NCBI GenBank assembly: GCA_035389185.1 | Contig: DAOORK010000001.1 | Coordinates: forward strand, 576,218 to 629,414 | DNA length: 53,197 bases | Direction of reading: 5' to 3' | From: Candidatus Woesebacteria bacterium | Lineage (GTDB): Bacteria; Patescibacteriota; Microgenomatia; UBA1400; MFAQ01 | Shown here: one piece after another, positions 6,778 through 53,197 of the stretch | Layout: each line of letters starts with the position of its first letter | Position numbering within the stretch: the stretch's first letter is position 1 | Translations under genes and position numbers: made by a program | The notes under the pieces: generated by a model | What the model saw: only the letters and a program-made list of their open reading frames with translations | Told to the model about the DNA's origin: nothing | Database searches by the model: none

Positions 6778-6782
6778 AGAGA

Positions 6783-28161: not shown

Positions 28162-28169
28162 CAATTAAA

Positions 28170-29730: not shown

Positions 29731-29732
29731 TG

Positions 29733-29816
29733 CGGAGGAGGTGGGATTCGAACCCACGTGTGCCGAAGCACATTTGCTTTCCAAGCAAACGGAATGGACC
29801 ACTATCCGACTCCTCC
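29733..29816 (-). tRNA. tRNA-Ser (anticodon GGA)
   Basis: Hand-folded cloverleaf: acceptor GGAGGAG/CTCCTCC, 3-bp D stem, anticodon loop TTGGAAA, 15-nt variable arm, T-arm GTGGG-TTCGAAT-CCCAC, discriminator G. CCA is not encoded. Confidence 0.88.
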
Positions 29817-30212: not shown

Positions 30213-30246
30213 AATTTATACTAACAAAACCCGAATAAGTTGTCAA
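30213..30246 (-). promoter_or_regulatory. Sigma70-type promoter for the LAGLIDADG-like ORF (leaderless-type spacing)
   Basis: The minus strand reads TTGACA-ACTTATTCGGGTTTTGT-TAGTAT-AAATT-ATG. It is near-identical to 33371-33407. Confidence 0.6.
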
Positions 30247-30993
30247 CTAGACGAGTTTTTGGACTGCATCCCAAAAGTCTGAGATTCGATTGAGAATGAC
30301 GGTTTCTGAAGGATAGTCACCTTGATTAAAGACTCCCCAAGGGCTTTTGAGGCCAAATGATTTTGCACCGAGAGCAACGGCTGGACGAATGTCTCCATGG
30401 AGACTGTCTCCGGTGATGAGACATTGTTCGGGTGTTACTTCAAGAAGAGACATAGCTTGTAACCAATGACTTTCATTTTTGGAATCATAGACATCAGCGG
30501 TGATGATGGCGTCAAAGTAGCTGGTGATGCCGGATTGATCGTTTTTCCTTAAGGACCAGTCGGTCTCGCCATGGGTAACTTGACCAAGGAGAAAACCCTC
30601 TTTTTGAAGGCCAGAAAGCACCGATCTTATACCGGGAATTGTTTGCGGTTCTGAGATATAGATATCTTGAATAATTGGGAAGTGTTTGAGAACTGTTTGA
30701 CTATTTCCTAGTTCTTGACCCAAACAATCAACAATAGTGAGCCACCTGGAAGGTTCGACGCCAGGGCGCTGATGTTCTTCGGTGTTTATTTCGTGCAAGC
30801 GGTGAAATACTTTTTCTGGATCGAGGTGAAGGTCGATAGCGACGGCCTCGGAAAAGGAGCGCATGTGATCAATAAACATGGAGTGAGTGTGAATGCAGGT
30901 GTCATCCAGATCAAAGAAAACTGCTTTGACACCAAGATGTTTTAGATGTTCGCAAGAATGATGGACATAGGGATCTCTTTCGATCTCGAGCAT
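30247..30993 (-). CDS. HAD-superfamily hydrolase
   Basis: Motif I FFDLDDTCIH (DxDxT). Motif IV-like ITGDSLHGDI. Confidence 0.8.
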   Translation of the reverse strand: MLEIERDPYVHHSCEHLKHLGVKAVFFDLDDTCIHTHSMFIDHMRSFSEAVAIDLHLDPEKVFHRLHEINTEEHQRPGVEPSRWLTIVDCLGQELGNSQTVLKHFPIIQDIYISEPQTIPGIRSVLSGLQKEGFLLGQVTHGETDWSLRKNDQSGITSYFDAIITADVYDSKNESHWLQAMSLLEVTPEQCLITGDSLHGDIRPAVALGAKSFGLKSPWGVFNQGDYPSETVILNRISDFWDAVQKLV

Positions 30994-31020
30994 GCCATAT
31001 GATAGCAGATGAAAAAATAC

Positions 31021-31048
31021 AAAAAATACCCTGCCTTTTGGGCAGGGT
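31021..31048 (-). terminator. Rho-independent terminator
   Basis: ACCCTGCC-TTTTG-GGCAGGGT, with a T-run on the minus strand (A-run 31021-31027). Confidence 0.75.
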
Positions 31049-31053
31049 AGAGT

Positions 31054-31422
31054 TTACCAAACAAAGACGCGATTCATGTGACCGTGGAAGGAAAGATCTT
31101 CAAGGGAAAACATGTCACCCTTTCGGATCGAGATGGCCTTTTGTTCTTCTTCCATCCACTGTTGATGGTCAATGAGGTCCTCTTCGGTCATTTTTTGGGC
31201 CTCTTCATCTGAAAGAGGAGGAAAGTCTGTCCAGGGAACGAAGGCATAATGATCAACGATTGGGGACTGAGGGTTGAATTGATCGTTAGCCAGTTTTTGG
31301 GTCTTGAGGACATAGATATCGTCAAGGGCATCCGTTTGTAGATCTTCCTTTTCGACAATAACGTACTTGTCGGGTGAAGGTCCAAATGAAACGACATCGC
31401 CAACAACAGGAACATTGTCCAT
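31054..31422 (-). CDS. Hypothetical protein (122 aa); probable distant paralog of 31544..31999
   Basis: The two share an N-terminal GDV motif (VVGDVVSFG vs GVGDVITSK) and a C-terminal xSxxGHMxxxF motif. Confidence 0.55.
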   Translation of the reverse strand: MDNVPVVGDVVSFGPSPDKYVIVEKEDLQTDALDDIYVLKTQKLANDQFNPQSPIVDHYAFVPWTDFPPLSDEEAQKMTEEDLIDHQQWMEEEQKAISIRKGDMFSLEDLSFHGHMNRVFVW

Positions 31423-31509
31423 ATTGCCTCCTTTTGAGATAGGGAATGTAAAGATTGCGAAGACCTATATAATAACAGGATTAAAGTACTTTGTCAACGG
31501 TCTTGGTTT

Positions 31510-31536
31510 AAAAAAAGCCCACGTTTTAACGTGGGC
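31510..31536 (-). terminator. Rho-independent terminator
   Basis: GCCCACG-TTTTAA-CGTGGGC, with a T7 run on the minus strand. Confidence 0.75.
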
Positions 31537-31543
31537 AAAGAGA

Positions 31544-31999
31544 CTATTTGAAGTACATTTCCATGTGGCCAACAAGAGAAATTTCACTAGAGGTGATCAA
31601 TGGGTCAGTGTCTCCAGTCATAAAGAAAACAATGATCTCTCCTTTGGGGTCCCAGAGGCCGTTTTTGTCGAGACGTTTGGCAGTGACAAGCCACCCCGGT
31701 GAGTAACCTTGATCAACATTGCCACCTGCCATTTCAGCATCGATGACAACAAATTTGTCAAAGGCACGAGATGGATCGGGGACACCGATGTCGATGTTCT
31801 TCATTCTTCCCGGAGGTATTTTGCCGGTTTTAAGTACTTCGGCGACTATATCATCTTCAGTAAGTGGAATGGAAATGATGTAACTGGGAGATTCCAGGCC
31901 AACGTAAATATGGTTTGTGTTTGTGAAGCCTCGGTGACCATAGATAAACCTTTTTGAGGTGATAACGTCACCAACACCAAGTAATCCGTCATGAGACAT
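31544..31999 (-). CDS. Hypothetical protein (151 aa)
   Basis: An ORF with its own terminator. No recognised domain. Confidence 0.55.
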   Translation of the reverse strand: MSHDGLLGVGDVITSKRFIYGHRGFTNTNHIYVGLESPSYIISIPLTEDDIVAEVLKTGKIPPGRMKNIDIGVPDPSRAFDKFVVIDAEMAGGNVDQGYSPGWLVTAKRLDKNGLWDPKGEIIVFFMTGDTDPLITSSEISLVGHMEMYFK

Positions 32000-32078
32000 G
32001 AATCGACTCCTTTCATTTCATTGTTAAGGTAGGCTGAGTGACTCGGATTGTATATTAGGTTGATTTATAAAGCAAATG

Positions 32079-32153
32079 TGCACCTGGTGCGATTCGAACG
32101 CACGACCTTTCCCTTCGGAGGGGAACGCTCTAATCCAACTGAGCTACAGGTAC
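32079..32153 (-). tRNA. tRNA-Arg (anticodon CCG)
   Basis: Cloverleaf: GTACCTG/CAGGTGC acceptor, D-arm GCTC-AGTTGGATTA-GAGC, anticodon loop CTCCGAA, T-arm GTGCG-TTCGAAT-CGCAC. Confidence 0.88.
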
Positions 32154-32160
32154 AACAAAG

Positions 32161-32168
32161 ATATTTTA
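32161..32168 (-). promoter_or_regulatory. TAAAATAT box 7 nt upstream of tRNA-Arg(CCG)
   Basis: The minus strand reads TAAAATAT-CTTTGTT-G(+1 of the tRNA). Confidence 0.45.
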
Positions 32169-32199
32169 TGTCTTTAGCACTTAGAAAGGGAGAATAAAG

Positions 32200-32207
32200 T
32201 AAAATAT
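32200..32207 (+). promoter_or_regulatory. TAAAATAT box 7 nt upstream of tRNA-Ser(CGA)
   Basis: TAAAATAT-ACAGGTT-G(+1). Confidence 0.45.
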
Positions 32208-32214
32208 ACAGGTT

Positions 32215-32296
32215 GGAGGATGGGCAGGACGGTAATGCGTTGGTTTCGAAAACCAATGAGCGCAAGCTCTAACAGGTTCGACCCCTGTATCCTCCG
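32215..32296 (+). tRNA. tRNA-Ser (anticodon CGA)
   Basis: Acceptor GGAGGAT/ATCCTCC, anticodon loop TTCGAAA, 15-nt variable arm, T-arm ACAGG-TTCGACC-CCTGT, discriminator G. Confidence 0.85.
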
Positions 32297-32306
32297 CATA
32301 ATAAAG

Positions 32307-32380
32307 TGAGCCCGGTGCGATTCGAACGCACGACCTATTGCTCCGCAAGCAATTGCTCTATCCAGCTGAGCTACGGACTC
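32307..32380 (-). tRNA. tRNA-Arg (anticodon GCG)
   Basis: Acceptor GAGTCCG/CGGGCTC, anticodon loop TTGCGGA. The T-arm is identical to that of tRNA-Arg(CCG). Confidence 0.85.
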
Positions 32381-32422
32381 ATAACCTACAGAGTGTATTT
32401 TACCCTATAAAGGCTAATTTCT

Positions 32423-32926
32423 CTATTCCAAAGGAAGTTTTTCACCAAGCCATTTGACGAGACGGTCCAACCAGGTAATGGGAGGCTCTTGATAAACGAT
32501 TTTTTGTTCGAGCATAAGCTCTTTTAATTGTTTCTCTTTCTCTGGATTGATGAGAATAACAATATGCCAGGGTGCTTGGGCAAGATTAACACGCATTAAA
32601 CGGCTACCCCATTTTGTTTCGAACCAAAATTGATTGATACTTTCGTAACGAAAAGTTCGTTCAGTGGTCTTGAGACCCCAAGTGGAGACAGCATATTTTT
32701 CCATTCTTGGTTCAGTACGACTCATGGCCCAAAGCATAAAAACCAAGGACCAGATGACTAAAACGGGCATGATTCCTTCGATGGAGTAGAAGATGATACT
32801 GGCAAGGATGGCCATAACAACAATGGTGCTATAAAACTCTTTACTCCATTTTTTTTGAGGTCTTTCGAAAGCATCCCATTCAAGGATGATTTTTTCTTCG
32901 AAGTTTTGTCTCTCGTTATTGGGCAC
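32423..32926 (-). CDS. Membrane protein (two TM helices), unknown function
   Basis: TM helices (VVMAILASIIFYSI and PVLVIWSLVFMLWAM) followed by a soluble C-terminal domain. Confidence 0.6.
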   Translation of the reverse strand: MPNNERQNFEEKIILEWDAFERPQKKWSKEFYSTIVVMAILASIIFYSIEGIMPVLVIWSLVFMLWAMSRTEPRMEKYAVSTWGLKTTERTFRYESINQFWFETKWGSRLMRVNLAQAPWHIVILINPEKEKQLKELMLEQKIVYQEPPITWLDRLVKWLGEKLPLE

Positions 32927-32969
32927 GTTTCATCTTAGCATATTCGACGATGTCTTTAGAAAAATTTTG

Positions 32970-33085
32970 TGCGGAGGGGGCGGGATTCGAAGTCTTCGGT
33001 CTCGCTTGCTAGCTCGCCTCGGACCGCGACTCGGCAAGATCACTGGAGCTTGCCTCCGTCAGGTTCGAATCCCAAATTTGGCATT
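32970..33085 (-). pseudogene. tRNA-derived fragment or pseudo-tRNA carrying an exact 22-nt copy of the 3' end of the neighbouring Ser-type tRNA
   Basis: 32970-32991 (TGCGGAGGGGGCGGGATTCGAA) is identical to 33119-33140. The upstream part cannot be folded into a complete cloverleaf (there is no T-stem 5' strand). A second TTCGAATCCC motif sits in inverted orientation at 33064-33073. Confidence 0.5.
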
Positions 33086-33115
33086 AAAAAATACTCACAC
33101 AAGGTGAGTATTTTC
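33086..33115 (-). terminator. Hairpin terminator after the Ser-type tRNA(ACU)
   Basis: ATACTCAC-ACAAG-GTGAGTAT flanked by A5 and T4 runs. Confidence 0.7.
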
Positions 33116-33120
33116 TTATG

Positions 33121-33205
33121 CGGAGGGGGCGGGATTCGAACCCGCGGTGCCTTGCGACACGGAGGTTTAGTAAACCTCTGCACTAGACCACTATGCGACC
33201 CCTCC
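33121..33205 (-). tRNA. Class II (Ser-type) tRNA with anticodon ACU
   Basis: Acceptor GGAGGGG/CCCCTCC, 3-bp D stem, anticodon stem GAGGT/ACCTC with loop TTACTAA (U33-ACU-A37), 16-nt variable arm, T-arm GCGGG-TTCGAAT-CCCGC, discriminator G. Confidence 0.75.
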
Positions 33206-33213
33206 TTATTGAG

Positions 33214-33221
33214 ATATTTTA
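33214..33221 (-). promoter_or_regulatory. TAAAATAT box 8 nt upstream of the Ser-type tRNA(ACU)
   Basis: The minus strand reads TAAAATAT-CTCAATAA-G(+1). Confidence 0.45.
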
Positions 33222-33255
33222 ACAGCTTTATATGCTGTTGAGGCTAATTGAATGA

Positions 33256-33263
33256 TAAAATAT
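33256..33263 (+). promoter_or_regulatory. TAAAATAT box 7 nt upstream of tRNA-Ser(UGA)
   Basis: TAAAATAT-ACGAGTT-G(+1). Confidence 0.45.
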
Positions 33264-33270
33264 ACGAGTT

Positions 33271-33354
33271 GGAGAGTTGGCCGAGTGGTTTATGGCGCAA
33301 GTCTTGAAAACTTGTGGGCGCAAGCCCTCAGAGGTTCGAACCCTCTACTCTCCG
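33271..33354 (+). tRNA. tRNA-Ser (anticodon TGA)
   Basis: Acceptor GGAGAGT/ACTCTCC, anticodon loop CTTGAAA, 15-nt variable arm, T-arm AGAGG-TTCGAAC-CCTCT, discriminator G. Confidence 0.88.
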
Positions 33355-33370
33355 CAATATTGTGCCTACC

Positions 33371-33404
33371 TTGACATTTCATTCGGGTTTTATTAGTATT
33401 AATT
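33371..33404 (+). promoter_or_regulatory. Sigma70-type promoter for the HTH/LAGLIDADG-like ORF (leaderless-type spacing)
   Basis: TTGACA-TTTCATTCGGGTTTTAT-TAGTAT-TAATT-GTG. It matches the promoter at 30213-30246 at 13 of 17 spacer positions plus both hexamers. Confidence 0.6.
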
Positions 33405-34028
33405 GTGAGAGATACTTTGCTCGTAAAACAAGTTCAAGGTCTATATAAATCAGGATTCTCTGTCACAGATATTTCAAATAAACTTGGTATAAGTAGTAGT
33501 AATGTTAGCCGTTGGTGTAGAAAAGCGGCGGAAGGAGATCTTGACAGAAAACCATCTGCTCAAGATAAAAGACGTCAGCTTTGGTTTGACTTTGACAAAA
33601 TCAATATGGAAAAATTGGATGTCAAAAAATGCAGAGAGTTAGTTTCAATCTTGTATTGGTGCGAGGGTGCAAAGTATCCTTCGACCGGAGAATTGGCTTT
33701 TACTAGTAGTGACGGGGAAATGCAAAGGGTCTTTATTAAGCTATTGAGAAAAGCGTATCCAGAAGAAATTGATGAAAGTAAATTCCGCGTAGTTTTACAA
33801 ATTCCTGCTACATACAACATTGAAGAAATCAGAGAATATTGGTCAAAATTATTGAATATTTCAATCACACAATTTTATAAACCGTATATTACAAAGACAC
33901 AAGGGAATAGATTTAGAAATACTTATAAAGGAACTTGTGGCTTAAGATACCACGATTACCGTATTCTTTTACGAATAATGGGAACGTATAATCAAATTGC
34001 AAAACAAATAATTGGAGACGTCCGGTAG
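33405..34028 (+). CDS. HTH + LAGLIDADG-like (homing-endonuclease-like) protein
   Basis: N-terminal helix-turn-helix (FSVTDISNKLGISSSNVSRWCRK). LAGLIDADG-like motif LVSILYWCEGAK. Paralog of 29802..30212. GTG start. The stop codon TAG lies inside the D-arm of tRNA-Ser(GCU). Confidence 0.6.
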   Translation: MRDTLLVKQVQGLYKSGFSVTDISNKLGISSSNVSRWCRKAAEGDLDRKPSAQDKRRQLWFDFDKINMEKLDVKKCRELVSILYWCEGAKYPSTGELAFTSSDGEMQRVFIKLLRKAYPEEIDESKFRVVLQIPATYNIEEIREYWSKLLNISITQFYKPYITKTQGNRFRNTYKGTCGLRYHDYRILLRIMGTYNQIAKQIIGDVR

Positions 34029-34098
34029 TGGTTTATCCGAACGGTTCGCTAAACCGTAGCCCGAAAGGGCCTCGTGGGTTCGAATCCCACCGTCTCCG
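34014..34098 (+). tRNA. tRNA-Ser (anticodon GCT)
   Basis: Acceptor GGAGACG/CGTCTCC, anticodon loop TCGCTAA, 16-nt variable arm, T-arm GTGGG-TTCGAAT-CCCAC, discriminator G. Confidence 0.88.
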
Positions 34099-34191
34099 CA
34101 ATTTTAAATTTGTTTATAAAGAAGAATGAATGGAGGAAGTGATTGTGTTAGAATTGTTACATAGTGAAGATGTTACGACACGACGGGTAAT

Positions 34192-42140: not shown

Positions 42141-42216
42141 TCCCCTGTAGCTCAGTTGGTAGAGCGCCTCCCTGTTAAGGAGGATGTCCGTGGTTCGAGC
42201 CCACGCGGGGGAGCCA
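42141..42216 (+). tRNA. tRNA-Asn (anticodon GTT), with CCA encoded
   Basis: Acceptor TCCCCTG/CGGGGGA, D-arm GCTC-AGTTGGTA-GAGC, anticodon loop CTGTTAA, T-arm CGTGG-TTCGAGC-CCACG, G-CCA 3' end. Confidence 0.9.
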
Positions 42217-43788
42217 GATGGGACGAGAGGGCAACAAAGAGTCCTTTTGTCCCGTAACATCGCTCTTTTTCGTAAGTTCGAATTTTCCGTTTTCAAAGTC
42301 GTCAATTTTATCTACTTTCGAACCGTTGGTTGCTTCAACTGCCTCGGAGAGGATTTTGAAGGTTTTAGAGTAGGTGTAGCTTAGCTTCCCCTCGTCAACC
42401 GTTAAGGTGGCAAAGATAAACCTGATTAAGGCTCTTTGTTCGTCTATCATGCCTTTTGCTCCAGCTTTCAGGTAAAGTTCCTTTGCTCTCTGGGAGAGTT
42501 CATATATATTTACCCCTAAGTTGATGTAGCCTGTGCTTGCCTGGGAGTGCTTTTTTATCGATTCTGTGATCTCATCTTTCTCGTCCGAGTATTGTTTAAA
42601 TTTCCTGTTATAAAAATCTGGCGCAATCTTCTCATCCAGTTTATCGTCGTATAGTTTGTCCATGCGCTTCTGAATTGCCTCGTAGCGGGCTTCTAGTTCG
42701 CCAACGGTATTGTTGTGGTATTCGACCTCGTCTTGATGGCTTTCCTTGAGTGCCTTCTTCAGCCATCCAACTATACGACTATTTTTAATTTTTAAGGTTT
42801 CAAAGCCTTCTAAAAGTTGGGCTTCGACTTCAGGTTCTTTAACCCAAGTCGTTTGCGGACATTCGTGGTAGTGATTGCAATGCCCATAGATATGTCCCTT
42901 AGCCGTCTCAAAGGTAATTGAGTTGTGGCAGCCAGCGCACTTAATTAACCCTCGGAAGAGGAAGTTGTGCTTGCGGTATTTGGGTGTGGTTCTGCTTGTA
43001 AGCATAGCCTGAACTTTATTAAATTGCTCGACAGTAATCAACGGCTGGTGTTTACCTTCATACAAGTCATCGTTCCATTTAATTTTACCAATATAGAAAG
43101 GTTCACGCAGCAGGGAGTGAATACGGCTGTGCGGTAGTTTGTGTCCTAGTTGTGAGCGCATCCCCTCGGCATACATCTTCTTAGATAGCCTTTTGGTTGA
43201 GTAGTTCCCTGTGAGGTATAGTTCAAACATTTTTCTCACAAAAGGAGCTGTGTCTTCATCAATGACATGGATTTTATGCCCAGTCTCGCCAATGGTCTTG
43301 TAACCGTTTGGGGGTTTGGTTGGTAGCCAACCTTGTGCAATCTTTTCTTTTTGCCCCTTCTTCACATTTTCCGAGAGGAGTCGGACATAATATTCGGCGG
43401 TTGCTACCTTTACCCGCCACATAAACCATTCGTGGGATCGGGAGGTATTATGGAGAATGCAGCCTTCTTTTGCCAGGTGAACTTGATGATTCTCATTTTC
43501 AGTAATCCATAAATCAATCGTCGGGACATCCGCAAAGTTCCTGGTTAAGCGGTCTGTAGTTTCAACGATAATCGTGGGGATGTCGTGCTTACGGACATAA
43601 GCGATCATTTCAATAAAGATCTTCCTCTGGACTTTGCCTGCTGCGGATTCGGAGACAGCGAAGACTTTAGCGACTTCCAGTCCCTGTTTATCGGCATAAT
43701 CCCTCAAAAATTTCTCCTGTGCTGGTAGGGAGTAACCCGTCTCCTCTTGTTCTTTACTGCTTACTCGGCAGAATATGGCAGTTTTCAT
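42175..43788 (-). CDS. Large serine recombinase (integrase)
   Basis: Resolvase-type catalytic N-terminus (AIFCRVSSKEQ ... TTDRLTRN), a recombinase domain, a zinc-ribbon (CAGCHNSITF...HCNHYHEC) and a coiled-coil C-terminus. Start trimmed to MKTAIF. The last 14 codons are antisense to the 3' half of tRNA-Asn. Confidence 0.9.
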   Translation of the reverse strand: MKTAIFCRVSSKEQEETGYSLPAQEKFLRDYADKQGLEVAKVFAVSESAAGKVQRKIFIEMIAYVRKHDIPTIIVETTDRLTRNFADVPTIDLWITENENHQVHLAKEGCILHNTSRSHEWFMWRVKVATAEYYVRLLSENVKKGQKEKIAQGWLPTKPPNGYKTIGETGHKIHVIDEDTAPFVRKMFELYLTGNYSTKRLSKKMYAEGMRSQLGHKLPHSRIHSLLREPFYIGKIKWNDDLYEGKHQPLITVEQFNKVQAMLTSRTTPKYRKHNFLFRGLIKCAGCHNSITFETAKGHIYGHCNHYHECPQTTWVKEPEVEAQLLEGFETLKIKNSRIVGWLKKALKESHQDEVEYHNNTVGELEARYEAIQKRMDKLYDDKLDEKIAPDFYNRKFKQYSDEKDEITESIKKHSQASTGYINLGVNIYELSQRAKELYLKAGAKGMIDEQRALIRFIFATLTVDEGKLSYTYSKTFKILSEAVEATNGSKVDKIDDFENGKFELTKKSDVTGQKDSLLPSRPIWLPRVGSNHGHPP

Positions 43789-43898
43789 AGTTATTTTGCA
43801 ACACACAACATAAACAAACTTTTAAGCAATATCAAACAATGATTAGTTTTCGCTTTCATTAGTCTTGATCCTCCTTAATTTCATCCTTATTTTGTCCA

Positions 43899-44405
43899 TC
43901 ATTTGTTCTTTTTTTTACCGTCATTCTGCCGAAGCGTTGCCGCTATTCCACCGTCAATTTTGGAGAAGCTTTGGGGAACATTTGGAGAATTCTTACCGCC
44001 GTTTTCTGGTGTATGTTTGGTGTAGCCTTGGTCTGGTTTTACCGCCATTAAAAATGAGGGGTTATTGCGTCTTTGATCGGTAAACCAGGAATATGTTTCC
44101 CTGCATCGTTCTCTCGTCCATTTTTCTTTCCTTTTAACCCAGTGGAACTTACGGCACCAGCGGTCTAATGTCCTGCGGTTTGGCAATCCTCCTCTCCTCG
44201 TAAAAAGAAGGGTCTGTTTGTCAGTGCTTAGTGTTTCGAGTTCAGAGCGTAGTTTAACTAAACTTCCTGATTCGCAGTAAAACTTAAAAACGCCATATTG
44301 GGCTTCAGACTCGTTATCCAACCTCATAACGACTTGCTCAAAGGGTCTAGCTTTATACAAAATTCCGCTCGCGTTTTTTCTTGTCTGTTTTATTCTGTTT
44401 GCCAT
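43899..44405 (-). CDS. Basic hypothetical protein, possible HTH DNA-binding protein (regulator, RDF or small-terminase-like)
   Basis: Trimmed to MANRIKQ. Contains a Trp/Arg-rich helix (RTLDRWCRKFHWVKRKEKW) and a Lys-rich tail. The function is an inference only. Confidence 0.5.
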   Translation of the reverse strand: MANRIKQTRKNASGILYKARPFEQVVMRLDNESEAQYGVFKFYCESGSLVKLRSELETLSTDKQTLLFTRRGGLPNRRTLDRWCRKFHWVKRKEKWTRERCRETYSWFTDQRRNNPSFLMAVKPDQGYTKHTPENGGKNSPNVPQSFSKIDGGIAATLRQNDGKKKNK

Positions 44406-44504
44406 AATCTTCGTATAGTAACTATATAAATACATTTCCTCTTAAAGGGAAAAATTGTTACTATAAATGTTCCTTTATAAATCCCTATATAGTTACTATG
44501 TGTT

Positions 44505-44858
44505 TTATATGTTGATGTCATCTAGATTTACCTCCTCAGTTGATACAGGTTCTTTGGTTCCGTAATTAGGGTCTTTGCTTCTGGCAAGGTGATAAGCGTC
44601 GTAGATCTTCTCCACAACCTGATCAAACAGCTTACTATCGTCAATAAAGACGATCTCATTCCATTTACCAATAAACTTATAACTAGGAGCTTGAATCCAA
44701 ATATAATCTTGAAATTGGGGGTGAAGCCGATCCGACTTTAAGATTTTCCAACCATGTTCTTTCCAGACATCGAATAGAATAACGGTTGCCTGAGCCAGGA
44801 TAGTATCGGATTTTAGTAATTTGACTTTGACAGTAATATCGTTAATCGTGATTGTCAT
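44505..44858 (-). CDS. Hypothetical protein, tentatively SpoVG-like fold
   Basis: By eye, the pattern ITVKVKLL....ILAQATVILFDVW...GWKILKS.....YIWIQAPSYKFIGKWNEIVFIDD parallels SpoVG (VRLRRV...MKAIASITLD..FVVHDIRVI.....FVAMPSKR..GEFRDI). Confidence 0.45.
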   Translation of the reverse strand: MTITINDITVKVKLLKSDTILAQATVILFDVWKEHGWKILKSDRLHPQFQDYIWIQAPSYKFIGKWNEIVFIDDSKLFDQVVEKIYDAYHLARSKDPNYGTKEPVSTEEVNLDDINI

Positions 44859-44883
44859 AATTATTTTTATTTAAGATTTTTCG

Positions 44884-45042
44884 CTAACTGGTATTCATCT
44901 TTTTTCCTTCAATCTTGAGTAATGTCTCGGTGAACCCTAATAAAGTCATCGCAACTTCCATCACTTCCTGGAGAGTTAGCTTGAGACGGTAGTCTTCTTC
45001 CAAGATTTGCTTTAGTTCTAGTAATAGGTTTCTGCTTATCAT
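44884..45042 (-). CDS. Small unlisted ORF (52 aa), apparently translationally coupled to the upstream gene
   Basis: My own translation: MISRNLLLELKQILEEDYRLKLTLQEVMEVAMTLLGFTETLLKIEGKKMNTS. Its ATG begins 2 nt after the TAA of 45045..45290. It falls below the 60-aa cutoff of the ORF track. Confidence 0.35.
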   Translation of the reverse strand: MISRNLLLELKQILEEDYRLKLTLQEVMEVAMTLLGFTETLLKIEGKKMNTS

Positions 45043-45044
45043 AG

Positions 45045-45290
45045 TTATCCGTTGGCGTAGAGCCGCGCCTTCACGACTCGTAATTGGTTGAAATAAACCT
45101 GTGGCGATATCTTGATTTCGTCGTGGTAATACTCGGCAACGAGATCCTGAAGTTTTTCTGTGTTTTGGAAAAGAAACAATGCTTTACGAGGATTTGATCG
45201 GTCAATATCTTCGATGGGATACCAAAGTGAAAGAGTGGTGGCTAGTGATAGATCGCTGGTTGAGTAGTAATCGTTATTAAGTGTATTCAT
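45045..45290 (-). CDS. Small DUF5659-like protein
   Basis: STSDLSLATTLSLWYPIEDIDRSNPRKALFLFQNTEKL...YFNQLRVVKARLY matches my recollection of the DUF5659 pattern common in CPR and phage genomes. Confidence 0.55.
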   Translation of the reverse strand: MNTLNNDYYSTSDLSLATTLSLWYPIEDIDRSNPRKALFLFQNTEKLQDLVAEYYHDEIKISPQVYFNQLRVVKARLYANG

Positions 45291-46614: not shown

Positions 46615-46734
46615 AACGAATTCCTCAACATAGCCCCCAACAAGGCTTCTGAAGCTAAATTAAGGTAATCTTATGCCACCTCAGGCACGAAAGCCTCACA
46701 CAAGCCGCTACGCGCGGTCACACTGTGGTTGAAG

Positions 46735-47784
46735 CTATTTACCTTCTGTAAAAGCTAGGATTTCTTTCTCAATAGGAGCAAACTTATCTTTTATTTCGTC
46801 CCCAGAGTAAAAAGCAAGGAGATCTGTCTCTGTAAGTTTTCCATCTCTTAGGAATTTAACTAAATATTTTTGATTGAATTCCATGAGAAGCAACGATTTT
46901 TCCAAATGTTTTAATATTTCCTGGTTATTTTGTATGTTGCCCTGCACAAGCCGTTTAATTTCAAAGAAGGTATCAATATCTCTAATGATTCGTTTCAATA
47001 TAATTGTTAAAGTTTTGTCGTCAAATTCGGGTTGAGTAGCATTTAGAACAATATCTCTGGCGAGGTTGTAAGCAATTATAAGATTGGAATAATCTCCTTT
47101 TTGGGAGTCTACTACCGCTACAAAACCTATGCCGTTAACAAAGCCTACAGATTCTGTGAATTTTAGGATGCTTCCATCAATTAGAGAGATGTCAAAAACT
47201 ATGATTCCAACTTTTCCTTCTCGGTTAGCTTTTGCTTCTAGAATTTGGCTCCAGGCAGTATCCTGCTTTTTGGTAAAAATATCTTTATCTTCAATACCAC
47301 CAAGTTTGAGAGATTTATCAAATTTTACCTCGATAGCGATCTTTTTATTTTCTTCTCCATCCACAAAGCACACTACATCACCAGTCTTGTTCTTGGGAAG
47401 TTTACCTTCCGTAGTTCCTGTTGTTTCTGCTCGATCTTTTAGTTTTTTCTCGGCAAAGTAGTTATTGAGAAATTCAGCAATATCATCTTCCGCAAACATT
47501 CCTTTAACTGCAGTTTTGAAGAAGACTTCTTTCTTCATCTCATAAATCATCTTAAGACTCTCTAGTTCTGTCCCAAGTTCATTCTGGGTTTTTGACAAGA
47601 ATGCTGATAGGCGGTCTTCCATTAGTGCAAGAACGCCAATGTAAATTGCTCTGAGTAGAGCATTGTCCCGTTCGCCAATAGAAAGCTTATCAAGGTAGTT
47701 GAAAACAATTTCGTTATCTAATTCAAAGTTACCAACCTTAACTCTTTTTAATTTTTGGTCTAGAGATATGATGTTATTTGCCAT
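46735..47784 (-). CDS. Hypothetical protein with a PD-(D/E)xK nuclease-like core; partner of the OLD-family protein
   Basis: GDVVCFVDGEENKKIAIEVKFDK gives D...E-x-K with typical spacing. It is preceded by a helical or coiled N-terminal region. The start overlaps the OLD gene stop by 11 nt. Confidence 0.65.
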   Translation of the reverse strand: MANNIISLDQKLKRVKVGNFELDNEIVFNYLDKLSIGERDNALLRAIYIGVLALMEDRLSAFLSKTQNELGTELESLKMIYEMKKEVFFKTAVKGMFAEDDIAEFLNNYFAEKKLKDRAETTGTTEGKLPKNKTGDVVCFVDGEENKKIAIEVKFDKSLKLGGIEDKDIFTKKQDTAWSQILEAKANREGKVGIIVFDISLIDGSILKFTESVGFVNGIGFVAVVDSQKGDYSNLIIAYNLARDIVLNATQPEFDDKTLTIILKRIIRDIDTFFEIKRLVQGNIQNNQEILKHLEKSLLLMEFNQKYLVKFLRDGKLTETDLLAFYSGDEIKDKFAPIEKEILAFTEGK

Positions 47785-49654
47785 TTTTCTTTATTGCCTC
47801 GAATAATTTTATTATATCCCCTGGTATATCTTTTTTATCTAAGATGTAAGTAGTCATGTATTTTGCACAGTCTGTTTTGGATGGTAAGAAGTCTTTTTTA
47901 CTGCTCGTTCCTGCAATCTTATCTCCTAATAATTTATGGAATTTCTGATCAGAATTCGCAGCTAATTGACCCCTTATGTCTTTCAAATCCTGTGCGGTTA
48001 ACTCAATTCCACACTTGTCCTTAACTAATTGTAACCAAAATTTGTCCTCGATGCTGTCCTCAATGTCAAATGCCCCAACAAGATAGACATTACTGCCAGA
48101 GGCGTTAGTATCTTTGTCCAAAACATAATATACACAGTCGTTTGGATCTTTGAAGTCCTTTAACATTTGCTCGAATAACTTTTTGTTCTCAGTTCTCCTA
48201 TGCCCACCACCAAGACATACAAATTGAACTGAGTCATCTTCAAAAGTCCGATCAAAATAGAGTTTATAAAAGTATGGAATTAGTATCTGATCCGAGTCTC
48301 CTTCACCAGCAATAAAGATGTCATAGAACAAGAAGTCACTGTTCCTAATACCCAAGCTTTCATGCACATCAGTAACCGATGAGCACATTGATACCGTCGT
48401 ATATTTGTCGTCAAGTTGAACTTTCCTAATTGTTTCAATTTGAGATTTGTCAACGAAAACCGTTGAGTGAGTGCTTATGAATGTCTGAAAGACTCCTCCT
48501 GATAACTGCTTTATGGTTTCGTAGAAATCCCGTTTTTCTGGAGGATACAAATGTGCTTCAGGTTCATCAAATCCCCACAAGAATTTCTTTGTTTTAACTT
48601 CTTCGGTCACTCCCTCAAGAGCTGCCAACCGCATAAAAGCAAAACCTATTTGTTTTTTAACTCCATCGCCTTGTGATTCTAGTCTCACACTTCCATCTGA
48701 TGTCCCTTTCTCGACAGAGATTTCAGATATGGTTTCGTCAGACCTGAAAAACACCCTCGCTTTTATTGCAGTTACCGTTGGCATCCCAGCGAGAATTTTT
48801 GATATCTTTTTTTCTAATTCAGTGTTAACCTTTTCAGTTGCTTCTTTACCTAACCTGTCAGCTTCACCCTTGAGTTTTGTGGAATATTCTTCAACTACTG
48901 TAGACATCGTGTCTCTTGCCATTTCCTCGACACTCTTAAGTGTTATTTCTCTCCAGTCAATATAACGGTAAATCGGGAAGAATTTCCTGTCTTTTTTCCC
49001 AAACTCATCATATGGAGACCATTGATCTGATGTTTTTAGTCTGTTATATATTGCCCTAAACTTCTCAACATTCTTAAACCTACCTGTTTTATTATCGTTG
49101 GTGATATCTTCTTTGGTTATTTTTAATTTTTTAATAAGATTATCAAGTGTTGTTTGATTCTGTTTCCAAAGCTCTTTTTTATCGGTAGTGTCTTCTTTCG
49201 AACAAAGCAAATATCTGCCATTTGGATACTGGTTATTAAATTGCCTGATGATGGCGATATTGTCGGCGGAGTAGCTTTCTATTGACCACTTAAGGTGGTT
49301 TGAAGCTATGTCGTCAAAGTCTCCCTCAAAATCACCATCTTGTTTGCTAAATATTGCAACCAAAATGATCGATTTATCTGTTCCTGGATCAAAAAAAGGA
49401 AGACCAAGTTCCTCAAATATTTTTTTGTATTTTTCCTCGACAATTGGTGTTGTAGAAATATCCGATGTTTCGTGACCCTCTTGGATCATATTGGGAAAGC
49501 TTTTTTCATCCAACAATAAACCCACTGCTTTCAAGATGGTAGATTTACCAGCGTCTGTCCGACCAATAAAAGTATTGGGAAGGTTCTCGTTAAATTCTAA
49601 AACCAAATCCCTACAACTTTTGTAGTTAATGATTGCTATTTGCTTTAAATACAT
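47774..49654 (-). CDS. OLD-family ATP-dependent endonuclease (ABC-type ATPase + TOPRIM)
   Basis: Walker A GRTDAGKST, signature-like ESQGDGVKKQ, Walker B FLWGFDEPEAHL, H-loop FISTHS. C-terminal TOPRIM motifs (IFIAGEGDSDQ, VLDKD). Confidence 0.85.
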   Translation of the reverse strand: MYLKQIAIINYKSCRDLVLEFNENLPNTFIGRTDAGKSTILKAVGLLLDEKSFPNMIQEGHETSDISTTPIVEEKYKKIFEELGLPFFDPGTDKSIILVAIFSKQDGDFEGDFDDIASNHLKWSIESYSADNIAIIRQFNNQYPNGRYLLCSKEDTTDKKELWKQNQTTLDNLIKKLKITKEDITNDNKTGRFKNVEKFRAIYNRLKTSDQWSPYDEFGKKDRKFFPIYRYIDWREITLKSVEEMARDTMSTVVEEYSTKLKGEADRLGKEATEKVNTELEKKISKILAGMPTVTAIKARVFFRSDETISEISVEKGTSDGSVRLESQGDGVKKQIGFAFMRLAALEGVTEEVKTKKFLWGFDEPEAHLYPPEKRDFYETIKQLSGGVFQTFISTHSTVFVDKSQIETIRKVQLDDKYTTVSMCSSVTDVHESLGIRNSDFLFYDIFIAGEGDSDQILIPYFYKLYFDRTFEDDSVQFVCLGGGHRRTENKKLFEQMLKDFKDPNDCVYYVLDKDTNASGSNVYLVGAFDIEDSIEDKFWLQLVKDKCGIELTAQDLKDIRGQLAANSDQKFHKLLGDKIAGTSSKKDFLPSKTDCAKYMTTYILDKKDIPGDIIKLFEAIKKNGK

Positions 49655-49660
49655 AGCTTT

Positions 49661-49873
49661 TTACGCAACTTTCGTGTCACCATAACGACCTTTGATGTTT
49701 TGGGAGAAGTAGCTTCCATGAGAGGAAGCTCCCATCAATCCTTGATAAAGGCTTTGCTGGACACCGTAGTATTGGTAGATACTTCCAGAGTGGAACTCAA
49801 TCTCAAGAGTTTGTGTCTGGGGGTCGTAGCCAATCGAAGCTATGTTTGATGAGCTTACTGGTTGTCTTGTCAT
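49661..49873 (-). CDS. KTSC-domain protein
   Basis: VSSSNIASIGYDPQTQTLEIEFHSGSIYQYYGVQQSLYQGLMGASSHGSYFSQNIKGRY matches the KTSC-domain pattern. AGGAGA RBS. The stop lies 6 nt before the OLD gene start. Confidence 0.8.
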   Translation of the reverse strand: MTRQPVSSSNIASIGYDPQTQTLEIEFHSGSIYQYYGVQQSLYQGLMGASSHGSYFSQNIKGRYGDTKVA

Positions 49874-49903: not shown

Positions 49904-49930
49904 AATAAAACTGCCCTATTCTAAGGGCAG
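49904..49930 (-). terminator. Rho-independent terminator after the mod gene
   Basis: CTGCCCT-ATTCTA-AGGGCAG, with a T-rich run on the minus strand. Confidence 0.7.
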
Positions 49931-49962
49931 TAAAATTCTAGTTGAGGCTAGGCACTAATGCT

Positions 49963-51762
49963 TTACACCTCTTTTGTCACGAGAACCTCCTCTCCTAACA
50001 TGTCAATGATTTTGATTGCCACCTTGGTTGGTTTTTCTGTTATCTCAAGCTCGTATTCTCCTTTGACCAGATCGCTTTGTTTCTCTGGGACATCGGAGAA
50101 GCCAATCTTGAACACTTCACCGTCGTAATTTGTATCCACCAGGACGACATCAATCATTGATCTAAAATCTGGGATTTTCTTCTGCAGGAGTCCTGGTTCA
50201 AGTTCTAAGCGTTTAATGATGGTGGGGGAGATAAAGGATGTAATCTTGATCTTTGTCTTATCCTTGCCTGTTCTGGTAATTTCGACCTCTGCCTTAGAAG
50301 GTTCGTAGCTGACAAAGTTCTTGTCTTTAAGATCAAAGACCACAAACTGCCTCATGCGCTTACTGGTGCGCGCATCTTTGTGAGGTTGTTTTTTATTCCA
50401 CTCCTCAACCCAGGAATCAACCTTTGTCTCTCTGCCCAGGCAGATCACAACAATATCTCTGTCTTCGTCAGGTCGTTTATCAAGCTCATCTTTGATAAGT
50501 TGCAGGTCAAGGAGTGTTAGCGGGTGATTGAAGTCGATTATTTTTACCAGTTCGCCGCTATCTCTTAAGCCGTCAAAGAATGCTTCTGTTTTGGTTCTGG
50601 TAATGCCATATTGCTGAATTGCCAGCTCCTTTGCCTCTGTTTTTAGGATTCTTAAGTCGTAATTGTTGACCTTGTAGATTCCAAAGGCTTTACTAATTTG
50701 TCCATCAATAAGTTTCTTTTGCTGTTCCTTGACAATCTTCTGCAACCTATGACTTGCTTGTTGAACTGCACCTTTGTTAATGTCTACACCAACCCACCGT
50801 TTACCTTCTTGCTGGGAAACTGCGCAGGTTGTTCCTGATCCCATGAAGCAATCAAGCACAAGACCATTGCTCGGCGCAGATGCTTTGATAATTCTTTCGA
50901 GTAGGGCTTCTGGTTTTTGAGTAGCATAATTAGTTTTCTCAATAGCGTTCCCTTGAACAGGGTTAATGTCACTCCACACATCACCAGGGTTCTTTCCAGA
51001 TTTTTCAAGTTCTTCCGCCTCAACCCCATACCGTGCTTCACCCCTTTTGGCTCTTGCGATAGTTTCTGGATTATATGGGACTCTAACAGGATCAAGGTTA
51101 AATTGATATTTATCACTCTTAGAGTAAAAAAGTATATTTTGATGCTTTCTTCCCCATCTTTCATTTCCGCTAGCACCCATGAAGTAGTTCCAAACAATAT
51201 CGTTCTGGAAGTTATCTTCGCCAAATACCTCATCCATTAAAACTCTCATGTAATGCGTCATGTGGTAGTCGAGATGAACATAAATACTACCTGTCTCGGA
51301 GAGCAATTCCTTGAGCAGAATCAACCGCTCATACATGAATTGGAAATACTCATCCCTTTTCCAAATATCCTCATACATTGTCTGTTGGATAATCGATTCG
51401 CTATCCTCTGCGATTTTTCCTAGGGCTTTTAGTCCTCGTAATTCAATCTTCCGCATATAGTCTTTATTGCTTGCAAAGGGAGGATCAATATAAATCAGAT
51501 CAACTTTGCCCCTGAAGCCTAGTTCCAGGAGGGAGGCGAGGACTTCTTTGTTATCACCATGGAAGAGGAGGTTGTGCCAGTTCTTTTCTAGCTTGCTATA
51601 TTCTGGAACCTTGAGAGCTTCTTTGTCTCCAAAACTCTCGGTGAGTTGGGTGGGATAGCCTATGACGAATTCCAAGGGCTTCTTATTAACCCAGGTCAAC
51701 ATTGGTCTACCGTTTGGTGTGCCGATTTTTATTTTTTTGTTTGTATCGTTTGTCATAGTCAT
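49963..51762 (-). CDS. mod: Type III-like DNA methyltransferase (Mod; beta-class N6/N4 MTase)
   Basis: Motif IV DLIYIDPPFASN precedes motif I VLDCFMGSGTT. The start is set at the ATG that forms an ATGA overlap with the res stop; the ORF track start at 51783 is an alternative. Confidence 0.85.
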   Translation of the reverse strand: MTMTNDTNKKIKIGTPNGRPMLTWVNKKPLEFVIGYPTQLTESFGDKEALKVPEYSKLEKNWHNLLFHGDNKEVLASLLELGFRGKVDLIYIDPPFASNKDYMRKIELRGLKALGKIAEDSESIIQQTMYEDIWKRDEYFQFMYERLILLKELLSETGSIYVHLDYHMTHYMRVLMDEVFGEDNFQNDIVWNYFMGASGNERWGRKHQNILFYSKSDKYQFNLDPVRVPYNPETIARAKRGEARYGVEAEELEKSGKNPGDVWSDINPVQGNAIEKTNYATQKPEALLERIIKASAPSNGLVLDCFMGSGTTCAVSQQEGKRWVGVDINKGAVQQASHRLQKIVKEQQKKLIDGQISKAFGIYKVNNYDLRILKTEAKELAIQQYGITRTKTEAFFDGLRDSGELVKIIDFNHPLTLLDLQLIKDELDKRPDEDRDIVVICLGRETKVDSWVEEWNKKQPHKDARTSKRMRQFVVFDLKDKNFVSYEPSKAEVEITRTGKDKTKIKITSFISPTIIKRLELEPGLLQKKIPDFRSMIDVVLVDTNYDGEVFKIGFSDVPEKQSDLVKGEYELEITEKPTKVAIKIIDMLGEEVLVTKEV

Positions 51763-53197
51763 TTTTGGTCTTGGTAAATCCAATTAAAGACTGGTGCTAC
51801 TTTACCAAACACCGATTCACCTTCCTCTAAGAGCAGGAGTTCATATTTAATTTTATCAGGATTTATCGCCTCTAGTTGTTTCATTTCTTTTTCTGCCGCT
51901 TCGTTTCTGAATGGTTTACCTTTAACTTCGACTATAAGCGACTTGCCATCCTTCTTTCTGATCAAGAAATCAGGTGTATATGAATGCCAGTCGCCTTTAT
52001 TGTCTTTATACTCAAACGCAAAGTCGGTTTTTTCCCTATCCGTAAGTGCGCCTGTAAAATAAATGTCCTCAACATTATCTGGATCTTCGCCGAGTTTGTC
52101 TAGCATTTGCTCAAAGAAGGCTCTTTCGTCTTCCGAGTCAAAGTTGTAAGGGTCGTAGTGAAACCCAAACAACGGCATCTGTCCTGCCTTCTTTTTGTAG
52201 GTCTTGGTATCTAAGACATACTTTTCTAGATTGTCCTTATTGACCCTGATATGAGTAACATAAGAGGTCTTGCCGTCTTCTACTTCTTCCTCAAAGCCTT
52301 TAGTTTTGATAAGCGCCAATGCTTCTTCGACTGTCTCAGTAGTTACTTTGTATTTAATAACCTGCTTTTCTAGTTGTAGGCGGACAAGCTCTAGGTCAAT
52401 TGCAGACATCTCTCCTTCTGGATAGAGAGGGGCAAGAAGCTTATAAACCTCTAGGGAATCAAGGCGATAGGTGTGAGTCAGTAGGACAGCTGCCTGGTAT
52501 AAATCGACCTTTACATCCCTGGGTTTCGATTTTTCGCTGTCAACTTCAACCAGGACACCTTTCCTCTGGGTTTTGGACATGGTGTAAATAGTCTTCTCAA
52601 GCCCTTCTATGGCGTCAGATTTGGGCTTATCGACCTTCAAGGCGGTAGATGTGTTGTCTTCGGGCACAATCTTTTGGATGAGTTTCTTGATAATAACTGG
52701 CTCAATCTCTAGTTTTTTGAGAGTTATCTTAACTGGGTAAGTATCGGTCTTGGCTCGGTTGAGATCATCTAAGCCTTCTCCAAAAGTCTCCTGTAGCTGG
52801 CGGTCAAGCACAGAGACATTGGCTTTGGAGAGATAAATCTTGGCTTTCTTGGTATTGCCGTTCACCTGTCTTAAACACCTGCTTGCTGCCTGAAGCACGA
52901 AGTTGTTGCTCGACGAGAGTTTTCTAGCAAGCGCGGTAGCAAATAAGGATAAGCAGTTCCATCCCTCAGTTCCCTTGTTGACCAGCAAAAACACTCTATA
53001 AGGCAGATGTGGGTCGTTGATGCGGTTGTCAAAGAGATCTTTGATATCTTCTGGTGATTTATTATGGACTGGTAAGACGACTGATGGGTCAAGTTTCAGG
53101 GAGATGAGAGTTTGTTCGACAATTGGTTTAGCTTGATCCAAGTCATCAACCTGGGGGAAGTAGATCGCCAGTTTTGCGTATTCGCCGTTATTGACTC
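51759..53197 (-). CDS. res: Type III restriction enzyme Res subunit (C-terminal part; N-terminus lies beyond the window edge)
   Basis: Helicase motifs V-VI (LLVNKGTEGWNCLSL, QAASRCLRQ). C-terminal PD-(D/E)xK endonuclease motif (YTPDFLIRKKDGKSLIVEVKGK). The frame stays open from 53141 to position 53197. Confidence 0.8.
   Translation of the reverse strand, partial: VNNGEYAKLAIYFPQVDDLDQAKPIVEQTLISLKLDPSVVLPVHNKSPEDIKDLFDNRINDPHLPYRVFLLVNKGTEGWNCLSLFATALARKLSSSNNFVLQAASRCLRQVNGNTKKAKIYLSKANVSVLDRQLQETFGEGLDDLNRAKTDTYPVKITLKKLEIEPVIIKKLIQKIVPEDNTSTALKVDKPKSDAIEGLEKTIYTMSKTQRKGVLVEVDSEKSKPRDVKVDLYQAAVLLTHTYRLDSLEVYKLLAPLYPEGEMSAIDLELVRLQLEKQVIKYKVTTETVEEALALIKTKGFEEEVEDGKTSYVTHIRVNKDNLEKYVLDTKTYKKKAGQMPLFGFHYDPYNFDSEDERAFFEQMLDKLGEDPDNVEDIYFTGALTDREKTDFAFEYKDNKGDWHSYTPDFLIRKKDGKSLIVEVKGKPFRNEAAEKEMKQLEAINPDKIKYELLLLEEGESVFGKVAPVFNWIYQDQK

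Follow-up and report, generated by a model that had tools for sequence, protein, structure and literature searches.

The 53,197-nt stretch of Candidatus Woesebacteria contig DAOORK010000001.1 considered here (the window) carries on its minus strand three head-to-tail open reading frames (ORFs), which encode a small KTSC-domain protein, an OLD-family protein combining an ABC ATPase with a TOPRIM nuclease, and a protein of 349 amino acids (aa), here named P349, with a predicted PD-(D/E)xK nuclease core (Table 1). The ATG of the OLD gene lies 6 nt past the KTSC stop codon, while the ATG of P349 falls within the final OLD codons, giving an 11-nt overlap with the OLD stop. A first-pass annotation of this DNA had proposed these genes as a defence operon, and its three ORFs, with their coordinates, strand, gap and overlap, were all recovered. 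Since the identical order KTSC-OLD-P349 is seen again between unrelated flanks, chance does not explain the grouping of these genes. The description of the KTSC gene as promoter-proximal is unproven, because no convincing promoter was found: the minus strand between KTSC and the Type III methyltransferase gene (mod) upstream of it holds no sigma-70-like site, and the 20 promoter-like sites in the region compare with 17.2 in shuffled sequence, so that the scan does no better than on shuffled DNA. Past the P349 stop, a GC-rich stretch of about 110 nt (46623-46734) precedes a convergent gene for a 290-aa protein. It is partly conserved in one related locus (L095), and no terminator-like hairpin was detected in it.

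Table 1. Features of the KTSC-OLD-P349 unit and its surroundings in the window, and DUF2130 genes beside OLD genes (59-86% identity to the window OLD) in related loci, numbered within each locus.
Feature	Position	Strand	Evidence or remark
KTSC-domain gene, first of the unit, 70 aa	49661..49873	-	PF13619, E=4e-28
KTSC ribosome binding site, GAAAGGAG	49888-49881	-	7 nt upstream of the ATG
OLD-family ABC ATPase and TOPRIM nuclease, 626 aa	47774..49654	-	AAA_15, 1.8e-28; OLD-like_TOPRIM, 2.9e-5
P349, 349 aa, predicted PD-(D/E)xK (Mrr-like) nuclease core	46735..47784	-	Invariant motif; AlphaFold2 model
P349 codon E99	47490-47488	-	Catalytic codon (predicted)
P349 codon D136	47379-47377	-	Catalytic codon (predicted)
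P349 codon E152	47331-47329	-	Catalytic codon (predicted)
P349 codon K154	47325-47323	-	Catalytic codon (predicted)
Terminator-like hairpin and T-run, between mod and KTSC	49910..49931	-	8-bp stem, 5 GC pairs
Type III methyltransferase (mod), upstream of the unit, outside the shared block	49963..51783	-	N6_N4_Mtase, 5.3e-55; PADLOC MTase_III, 6.6e-66
Type III res, C-terminal part	51759..53197	-	Frame open to the window end
tRNA-Asn	42141-42216	+	Abuts the recombinase gene
Large serine recombinase	42175-43806	-	Resolvase, Recombinase, Zn_ribbon_recom
DUF2130 gene, L089	4376-5566		After OLD
DUF2130 gene, L092	1800-2933		After OLD
DUF2130 gene, L097	1470-2789		After OLD
DUF2130 gene, L102	5945-7204		After OLD
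DUF2130 gene, L103	5877-7064		After OLD
DUF2130 gene, L096	2179-3456		Upstream of OLD

In the OLD protein, the AAA_15 match spans residues 1-401 and the OLD-like_TOPRIM match residues 442-496, the latter scoring 24.9 bits, just above the cut-off of 23.2. The PADLOC models that match the protein are AriA, Old and GajA, with AriA scoring best on the ATPase part (3.1e-31), and the only solved structure reached by its sequence, weakly, is the Class 1 Ts OLD (6p74). Among 32 relatives, the Walker A residues G31, G36 and K37, the signature residues G329 and G331, the Walker B residues E364-P365-E366, and H396 are invariant, as are E451 and D513/D515 of the TOPRIM domain. Both activities, ATPase and TOPRIM nuclease, are therefore predicted to be intact, and the invariant TOPRIM residues rule out the idea that P349 replaces a dead TOPRIM domain. 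Domain and PADLOC matches place the protein outside the Gabija, retron and PARIS arrangements, in agreement with the first-pass annotation, and assign it to no characterised type with the same partners. Membership in Gabija (Class 2) was rejected on finding P349, a protein devoid of any helicase domain, downstream of OLD; the retron-associated Class 3 on finding KTSC, P349 and mod as neighbours, with no reverse transcriptase domain in the neighbours scanned, a non-coding RNA not having been searched for; and PARIS (Class 4) on the fusion of ATPase and TOPRIM in one 626-aa ORF. A Lamassu-like assignment was also discarded, as no LmuB or LmuA model scores above the OLD, GajA and AriA models on the window proteins. 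By the published operational rule, the protein would count as a Class 1 OLD because no helicase lies downstream.

The window sequence of P349 has no match in Pfam, PADLOC, NCBIfam or PHROG. Its homologues number more than 2,300, with cross-phylum members 63-73% identical in Patescibacteria, Bacteroidota, Ignavibacteriota, Cloacimonadota and Planctomycetota, and more distant ones in Bdellovibrionota (57%) and Alphaproteobacteria (56%); an exhaustive profile search delimits a family of 337 clusters at 50% identity. A second homologue search with a diverse P349 profile returned mainly the same close clade, putting the total at about 2,300-2,500. In an alignment of 67 full-length representatives at 50% identity, reaching down to about 21% identity, the sole invariant columns are E99, G135, D136, E152 and K154, which include all three residues of the nuclease-like D...E-V-K core noted in the first reading of the sequence. 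Ten of these 67 relatives reach the Pfam family PDDEXK_15 (PF24608), and nine carry an N-terminal SAP domain by Pfam annotation, a domain that the literature describes as DNA-binding. AlphaFold2 modelling on the same alignment gave a predicted local distance difference test score (pLDDT) of 88 and a predicted template modelling score of 0.60, superseding an earlier run on 15 close homologues (pLDDT 52.9, insignificant PDB matches). From N- to C-terminus, the model comprises a beta/helix element, a long hairpin of helices (36-112), a core (118-248) and long helices; the core is an alpha-beta-beta-beta-alpha-beta arrangement bearing the catalytic motif (helix 71-112; strands 118-121, 137-140 and 148-154; helix 177-188; strand 192-198). 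Foldseek against viral models (BFVD) matched two proteins of giant viruses over the full length (E=1.4e-5 and 6.8e-5), and an Mrr restriction-endonuclease domain is annotated in one of these. Because the invariant motif, the core fold of the model and the Mrr-domain match agree, the PD-(D/E)xK label is taken as correct and P349 as a predicted nuclease of that superfamily, structure prediction thus supporting the nuclease fold that had been suspected. At its catalytic region P349 also aligns weakly by profile with DUF2130 (PF09903; E=0.0035, probability 9%), for which homology is not claimed. P349 is absent from GenBank phages and has only two matches in the 2.9 million contigs of IMG/VR; a phage origin of the unit was considered and rejected.

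The KTSC gene product matches its Pfam profile over the full length and has the central YxY motif, within IYQYYGV. It is homologous to the solved KTSC proteins 7x8c (3e-17) and 4rgi, and it also matches residues 628-692 of the HerA of Paenibacillus sp. 453MF (8wiv chain A; E=3.4e-16). The solved HerA, part of an experimentally active SIR2-HerA system, thus carries a fused KTSC domain, inside what its authors call the C-terminal arm (PMC11472057). HerA-KTSC fusions also occur upstream of P349 in L063 and probably in L076, and in L049 a separate KTSC gene and P349 are closely preceded by the gene for a 615-aa protein (773-2620) that has SLFN/AlbA_2, HATPase_c_4 and Fic-like_C domains and ends in a KTSC domain. 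The literature describes the KTSC domain as binding nucleic acids.

The KTSC-OLD-P349 set transfers as one unit. Comparison of the window with L091, L094 and L095 by blastn revealed a single shared block, which starts about 40 nt before KTSC (at about 49914, right after the hairpin) and ends at about the P349 stop, continuing for about 110 nt beyond it in L095. The flanks of the block are unrelated: the window has Type III restriction-modification (R-M) genes there, L095 two large ORFs taken as R-M subunits, L091 an integrase-like ORF (judged from sequence only), and L094 others. In L008, a Dojkabacteria genome, all three genes recur, the OLD being 44% identical to that of the window. A second OLD clade, in about 12 further genomes, mostly of Bacteroidota, is found in loci with KTSC or a WYL-like 96-aa protein, an optional 72-aa protein, OLD and P349. 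The 72-aa protein, labelled "KTSC-like?", compares with KTSC only at E=0.002 and a probability of 14%. Conservation of the trio as a unit, which the first-pass annotation had made a test of its proposal, is therefore seen in four loci that share the window's OLD clade (L008, L091, L094 and L095) and in about 12 loci with the second.

This mobility could be read as that of a dedicated three-component system, in which KTSC, OLD and P349 work in one machine and form a new OLD class: the block keeps its gene order, short gap and overlap as it moves, it recurs with two OLD clades, and a PD-(D/E)xK partner of some kind accompanies OLD in nearly all members of the clade to which the window OLD belongs. 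However, the nearest OLD relatives, at 72-86% identity, have neither KTSC nor P349, and blastn of the window against L089, L102 and L103 finds nothing in common beyond the OLD ORF. A relative at 36% identity has KTSC-OLD without P349, and WYL takes the place of KTSC in the OLD-P349 loci L070 and L099. Furthermore, in a group of seven loci with the second OLD, the distances of the three proteins are uncorrelated (r -0.15 to 0.30), and both KTSC and P349 are far commoner beside SIR2-HerA and other ATPases than beside OLD. A dedicated OLD system, as first proposed, is thus decidedly unlikely.

The partners of P349 were surveyed in 79 loci, the window and 78 genomic or metagenomic loci from the best 80 of 257 genomic matches, using our own ORF calling and clustering of the products. 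The commonest module upstream of P349 is SIR2-HerA-KTSC (31 loci), followed by OLD of two clades (13 loci, and 2 that also have SIR2-HerA), an AAA_13 ATPase equivalent to the PADLOC candidate PDC-S06 (5e-172; 9 loci), SMC/LmuB-like ATPases (6 loci, and 2 that also have SIR2-HerA) and PDC-S46 (1.5e-255; 4 loci), while BREX PglX-PglZ-BrxL and GmrSD account for one locus each; the remaining loci are mostly short contigs or gene-calling gaps. The Paracoccus plasmid pPZ02 is annotated with SIR2-HerA(DUF87)-KTSC-P349, as is one IMG/VR contig. Upstream neighbours of P349 fall into 19 clusters among 77 (Simpson 0.81), in comparison with 64 among 75 downstream (Simpson 0.995), and the upstream gap has a median of 2 nt, with 87% within 20 nt, against a downstream median of 32 nt. 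Solitary P349 is rare in the surveyed loci, L100 having no adjacent ATPase, and KTSC is absent from many of them.

Several of these loci have further genes close to P349. In L029 (9026-15588), L072 (9039-16031), L010 (9045-15167) and L041 (9025-15141), a four-gene set starts 3-18 nt past the P349 stop or 4 nt ahead of it and encodes proteins of about 440-490, 190-215, 1080-1160 and 310-390 aa, sizes that may point to a Wadjet (JetABCD)-like system. In L010, a protein of about 344 aa (7001-8035; cluster c13, with homologues elsewhere) is encoded between an LmuB/SMC-like 826-aa ATPase and P349, overlapping the latter by 35 nt, in a Lamassu-like arrangement with P349 last; it has an N-terminal membrane segment predicted from sequence and a weak match to MukF_M (E=0.0037). 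In L065, a 71-aa ORF (3058-3273) between KTSC and P349 matches just the first 45 or so residues of AAA_13 and looks like the decayed ATPase of a PDC-S06-type cargo, behind two large ORFs taken as hsdM and hsdS.

The P349 tree does not follow partner type, every type being intermixed in a single clade. Across 27 SIR2-HerA-KTSC-P349 loci, mean identity is 0.78 for P349, 0.57 for KTSC, 0.54 for HerA and 0.45 for SIR2. The distances of the last three proteins correlate with one another (KTSC-HerA 0.78, KTSC-SIR2 0.81, HerA-SIR2 0.83), in contrast to those of P349, which correlate with KTSC, HerA or SIR2 at 0.16-0.23 only. Given that KTSC co-varies with HerA and SIR2 and not with P349, and that the fusion in 8wiv agrees, KTSC appears to be a member or accessory of the NTPase module. 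A KTSC-P349 toxin-antitoxin pair was rejected, as the two do not co-vary and some P349 loci have WYL, or no small protein at all, instead of KTSC.

The other side of the exchange was examined in the window's OLD clade, defined as 94 proteins at E<=1e-10, whose nearest named relatives are from Candidatus Amesbacteria and Pacebacteria. In its closest members (L089, L092, L097 and L102), and in L103, the OLD gene is followed by a gene for a DUF2130 protein with a Zn-ribbon-like N-terminus and a coiled coil, which in L096 lies upstream of OLD instead. A Type ISP-like R-M enzyme directly precedes OLD in all four loci with a visible upstream gene (L089, L090, L102 and L103). DUF2130 counts among the PD-(D/E)xK families (PMC3424549), and no defence literature on it was found. 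In L104, an OLD 44% identical to that of the window is followed after 4 nt by a 758-aa Mrr_cat and nSTAND3 protein (5873-8149). Among the clade members sampled, almost all thus have an adjoining PD-(D/E)xK partner gene; the exceptions are L105, which has none, and L090 and L093, which are too short or lack one. Because DUF2130 or Mrr_cat-nSTAND3 stands where P349 is lacking, the clade is habitually coupled to some PD-(D/E)xK partner, and exchange at gene boundaries affects the OLD gene as well as its partner.

On balance, we consider it somewhat probable that the locus is a mosaic defence operon of three exchangeable modules, located on a tRNA-Asn island, with P349 as a portable nuclease add-on. 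In such an operon, the OLD ATPase would detect invading or damaged DNA and nick it through its TOPRIM domain, in the way that one Class 1 OLD is reported to nick foreign DNA (PMC12392090), with possible assistance from KTSC through nucleic-acid binding, while P349 would act as a second, generic DNA-degrading effector. The trigger of P349 would be one common to all partner systems, for example the energy or nucleotide state of the cell or a lesion or structure in DNA. A partner-specific protein interface would be improbable, and a generic trigger of this kind is proposed to account for the strong conservation of P349, its free exchange and its lack of co-variation with its partners. An extended form of this reading is possible but doubtful, and we put it forward tentatively: P349 would be a portable "universal" effector or guard nuclease recruited independently by more than seven unrelated defence systems and activated by a common signal, KTSC and stand-alone WYL proteins would be small, interchangeable sensor or adaptor subunits of the NTPase modules, and OLD with a PD-(D/E)xK partner would constitute an undescribed OLD class.

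Several observations weigh against the mosaic reading. Within the window-type group of four loci, the distances of the three proteins are indeed correlated (r 0.71-0.83, 6 pairs), as a dedicated system would have it, leaving room for a local, trio-specific relationship there. The low divergence of P349 may account for part of its missing co-variation elsewhere, and the survey is skewed to Bacteroidota and to relatives of more than 63% identity, besides its selection of best matches and its own gene calls. Foldseek of the P349 model against the PDB gave nothing significant (best E=0.21, Bax1), in a list composed mostly of PD-(D/E)xK enzymes (Bax1, McrC, EcoRV, EcoT38I), and the P349 profile matched no PDB chain sequence. 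In addition, the defence role of the P349-containing loci is inferred from genomic context, with R-M, BREX, GmrSD, SIR2-HerA and PADLOC candidate families among the neighbours or partners. Finally, of the genes that follow P349 on the same strand, 46% likewise lie no more than 20 nt away, and the four-gene sets that adjoin it downstream mean that tight spacing is not limited to upstream partners. Since tight spacing is weak evidence in such densely packed loci, P349 could be an independent neighbour.

Under this last explanation, P349 would be a stand-alone Mrr-like (Type IV-like) nuclease and OLD an ordinary Class 1 enzyme, sharing a transcript through island packing. The top fold matches of P349 are Mrr-domain proteins, its evolution is independent of every partner, and its occurrence after BREX and GmrSD, once each, and without an adjacent ATPase in L100 fits as well. 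Two papers describe Class 1 OLDs as acting on their own (PMC12392090, PMC13261556). However, the asymmetry between upstream and downstream neighbours, in both diversity and spacing, and the rarity of solitary P349 are at odds with independence. Furthermore, the coiled-coil DUF2130 protein replaces P349 gene-precisely behind the same OLD, which suggests a functional slot after OLD. We therefore regard independent neighbours as rather unlikely.

The mosaic reading must also be set against a role of P349 as a guard or back-up nuclease triggered on inhibition of the upstream module, or as an addiction or stabilising gene of defence cassettes. PrrC, the guard of a Type I enzyme, is one of the AAA_13-type ATPases, and its PADLOC model gives a weak match to one of the partner families (1.6e-8). 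P349 is indifferent to the upstream system, extremely conserved, and always downstream with spacing like that of translational coupling, and the unit often lies right behind R-M genes. Despite this, there is no consistently present antitoxin-like partner, and KTSC, missing from many P349 loci and not co-varying with P349, does not fill that position, making a guard or addiction role quite improbable.

Reviews and recent papers define OLD Classes 1-4 and an archaeal Cran1 class, and in these sources none of the classes has a PD-(D/E)xK or KTSC partner. A sentence by Iyer et al. (2022; PMC9503650) gives HerA with KTSC and an endoDNase as an "unpublished observation"; it was the only link between KTSC and defence found, and in contrast to that remark the sirtuin is kept in the loci of this analysis. 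The first-pass description of the system as undescribed thus very nearly holds, this remark being the exception.

Like the Class 1 enzymes P2 Old, Thermus scotoductus OLD, Vibrio cholerae OLD and E. coli YbjD, the window OLD has a fused ABC ATPase and TOPRIM and no UvrD-like helicase. Unlike in these enzymes, which are described as single-gene systems, its clade is nearly always followed, and once preceded, by a PD-(D/E)xK-domain partner, and is often preceded by KTSC or WYL. Gabija (GajA and GajB) similarly joins an OLD ATPase/TOPRIM protein to an obligate-looking downstream partner, and GajA models match the window OLD, but GajB is a UvrD-like helicase whereas the partner here is a predicted PD-(D/E)xK nuclease. 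PARIS is likewise based on an ABC ATPase and found in defence islands, with AriA giving the best PADLOC match to the ATPase part; its ATPase and TOPRIM are split and not fused, and the additional partners in the window are unrelated to AriB. SIR2-HerA (453MF, 8wiv) is the commonest context of KTSC and P349 (31 of 79 loci, and pPZ02), though it is published as two genes with no P349-like nuclease described, and the window has neither SIR2 nor HerA. As for Lamassu, some other P349 loci have LmuB-like ATPases, while nothing in the window itself fits. Mrr-type (Type IV-like) nucleases, PDDEXK_15 and DUF2130 have the PD-(D/E)xK core in common with P349, and DUF2130 fills the same slot after OLD, whereas P349 itself lacks a Pfam match or a significant match to a solved structure. 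The nuclease-protease pairs of Hachiman, AVAST, Lamassu and DRT (Tuck et al., 2025; PMC12799240) are also portable nucleases joined to unrelated systems, and trees indicate their transfer between defence systems, the same evolutionary pattern as for P349, which makes them its nearest conceptual precedent. They differ in comprising a pro-nuclease of the metallo-beta-lactamase (MBL) fold and a trypsin-like protease in place of a PD-(D/E)xK protein with small KTSC or WYL proteins, and in that their nuclease and protease trees match, unlike those of P349 and KTSC, which do not co-vary.

OLD-based defence with PD-(D/E)xK partners is the new variant aspect of the locus, and the unannotated, portable P349 is the more interesting one. 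The present OLD scheme of stand-alone, Gabija, retron and PARIS enzymes does not capture a clade habitually paired with PD-(D/E)xK partners, and P349 has no assignment in Pfam, PADLOC or NCBIfam, yet closes many known or candidate defence operons. Should P349 prove to be an effector or guard common to these systems, it would follow the nuclease-protease pairs as the second known nuclease module taken up recurrently by unrelated immune systems. SIR2-HerA, PDC-S06 and PDC-S46 loci, now annotated and tested without P349, would then gain a missing gene, and the KTSC domain, part of the C-terminal arm in the solved HerA, would acquire a defence context.

The trio and the Type III R-M genes upstream of it probably lie on an island integrated at tRNA-Asn, a conclusion drawn from the tRNA gene abutting a recombinase gene and from the flattening of cumulative GC skew from about 42 kb onward. 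The tRNA-Asn overlaps the 3' end of the large serine recombinase gene, and the two (42141..43806) are probably the left boundary of the island, the other end of which falls outside the window. Small ORFs follow, including one for a DUF5659 protein, and the whole segment (42141-45290) is probably the integration end. The unit's position downstream of an R-M system bears out the defence-island context described earlier. Identical copies of the locus occur in metagenomic contigs of 460-900 kb, and in identical contigs the res product is 860 aa long with a ResIII domain. A housekeeping DNA-repair or cell-cycle operon would have a parallel in the archaeal OLD-family ATPase Cran1, to which one paper ascribes a role in the cell cycle and not in defence (PMC12796447). 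The patchy occurrence of the unit, its horizontal transfer across phyla, flanks that differ in every genome, its place on a tRNA-linked island beside R-M genes, and the known or candidate defence genes among its partners make such an operon very improbable here.

Elsewhere in the window, five tRNA-Ser genes (GGA, CGA, ACT, TGA and GCT) and two tRNA-Arg genes are clustered inside 4.4 kb (29732-34099). An ACT anticodon is unusual for a bacterial tRNA-Ser, and this gene could be a pseudogene or wrongly called. Positions 27746-28162 hold a tmRNA gene.

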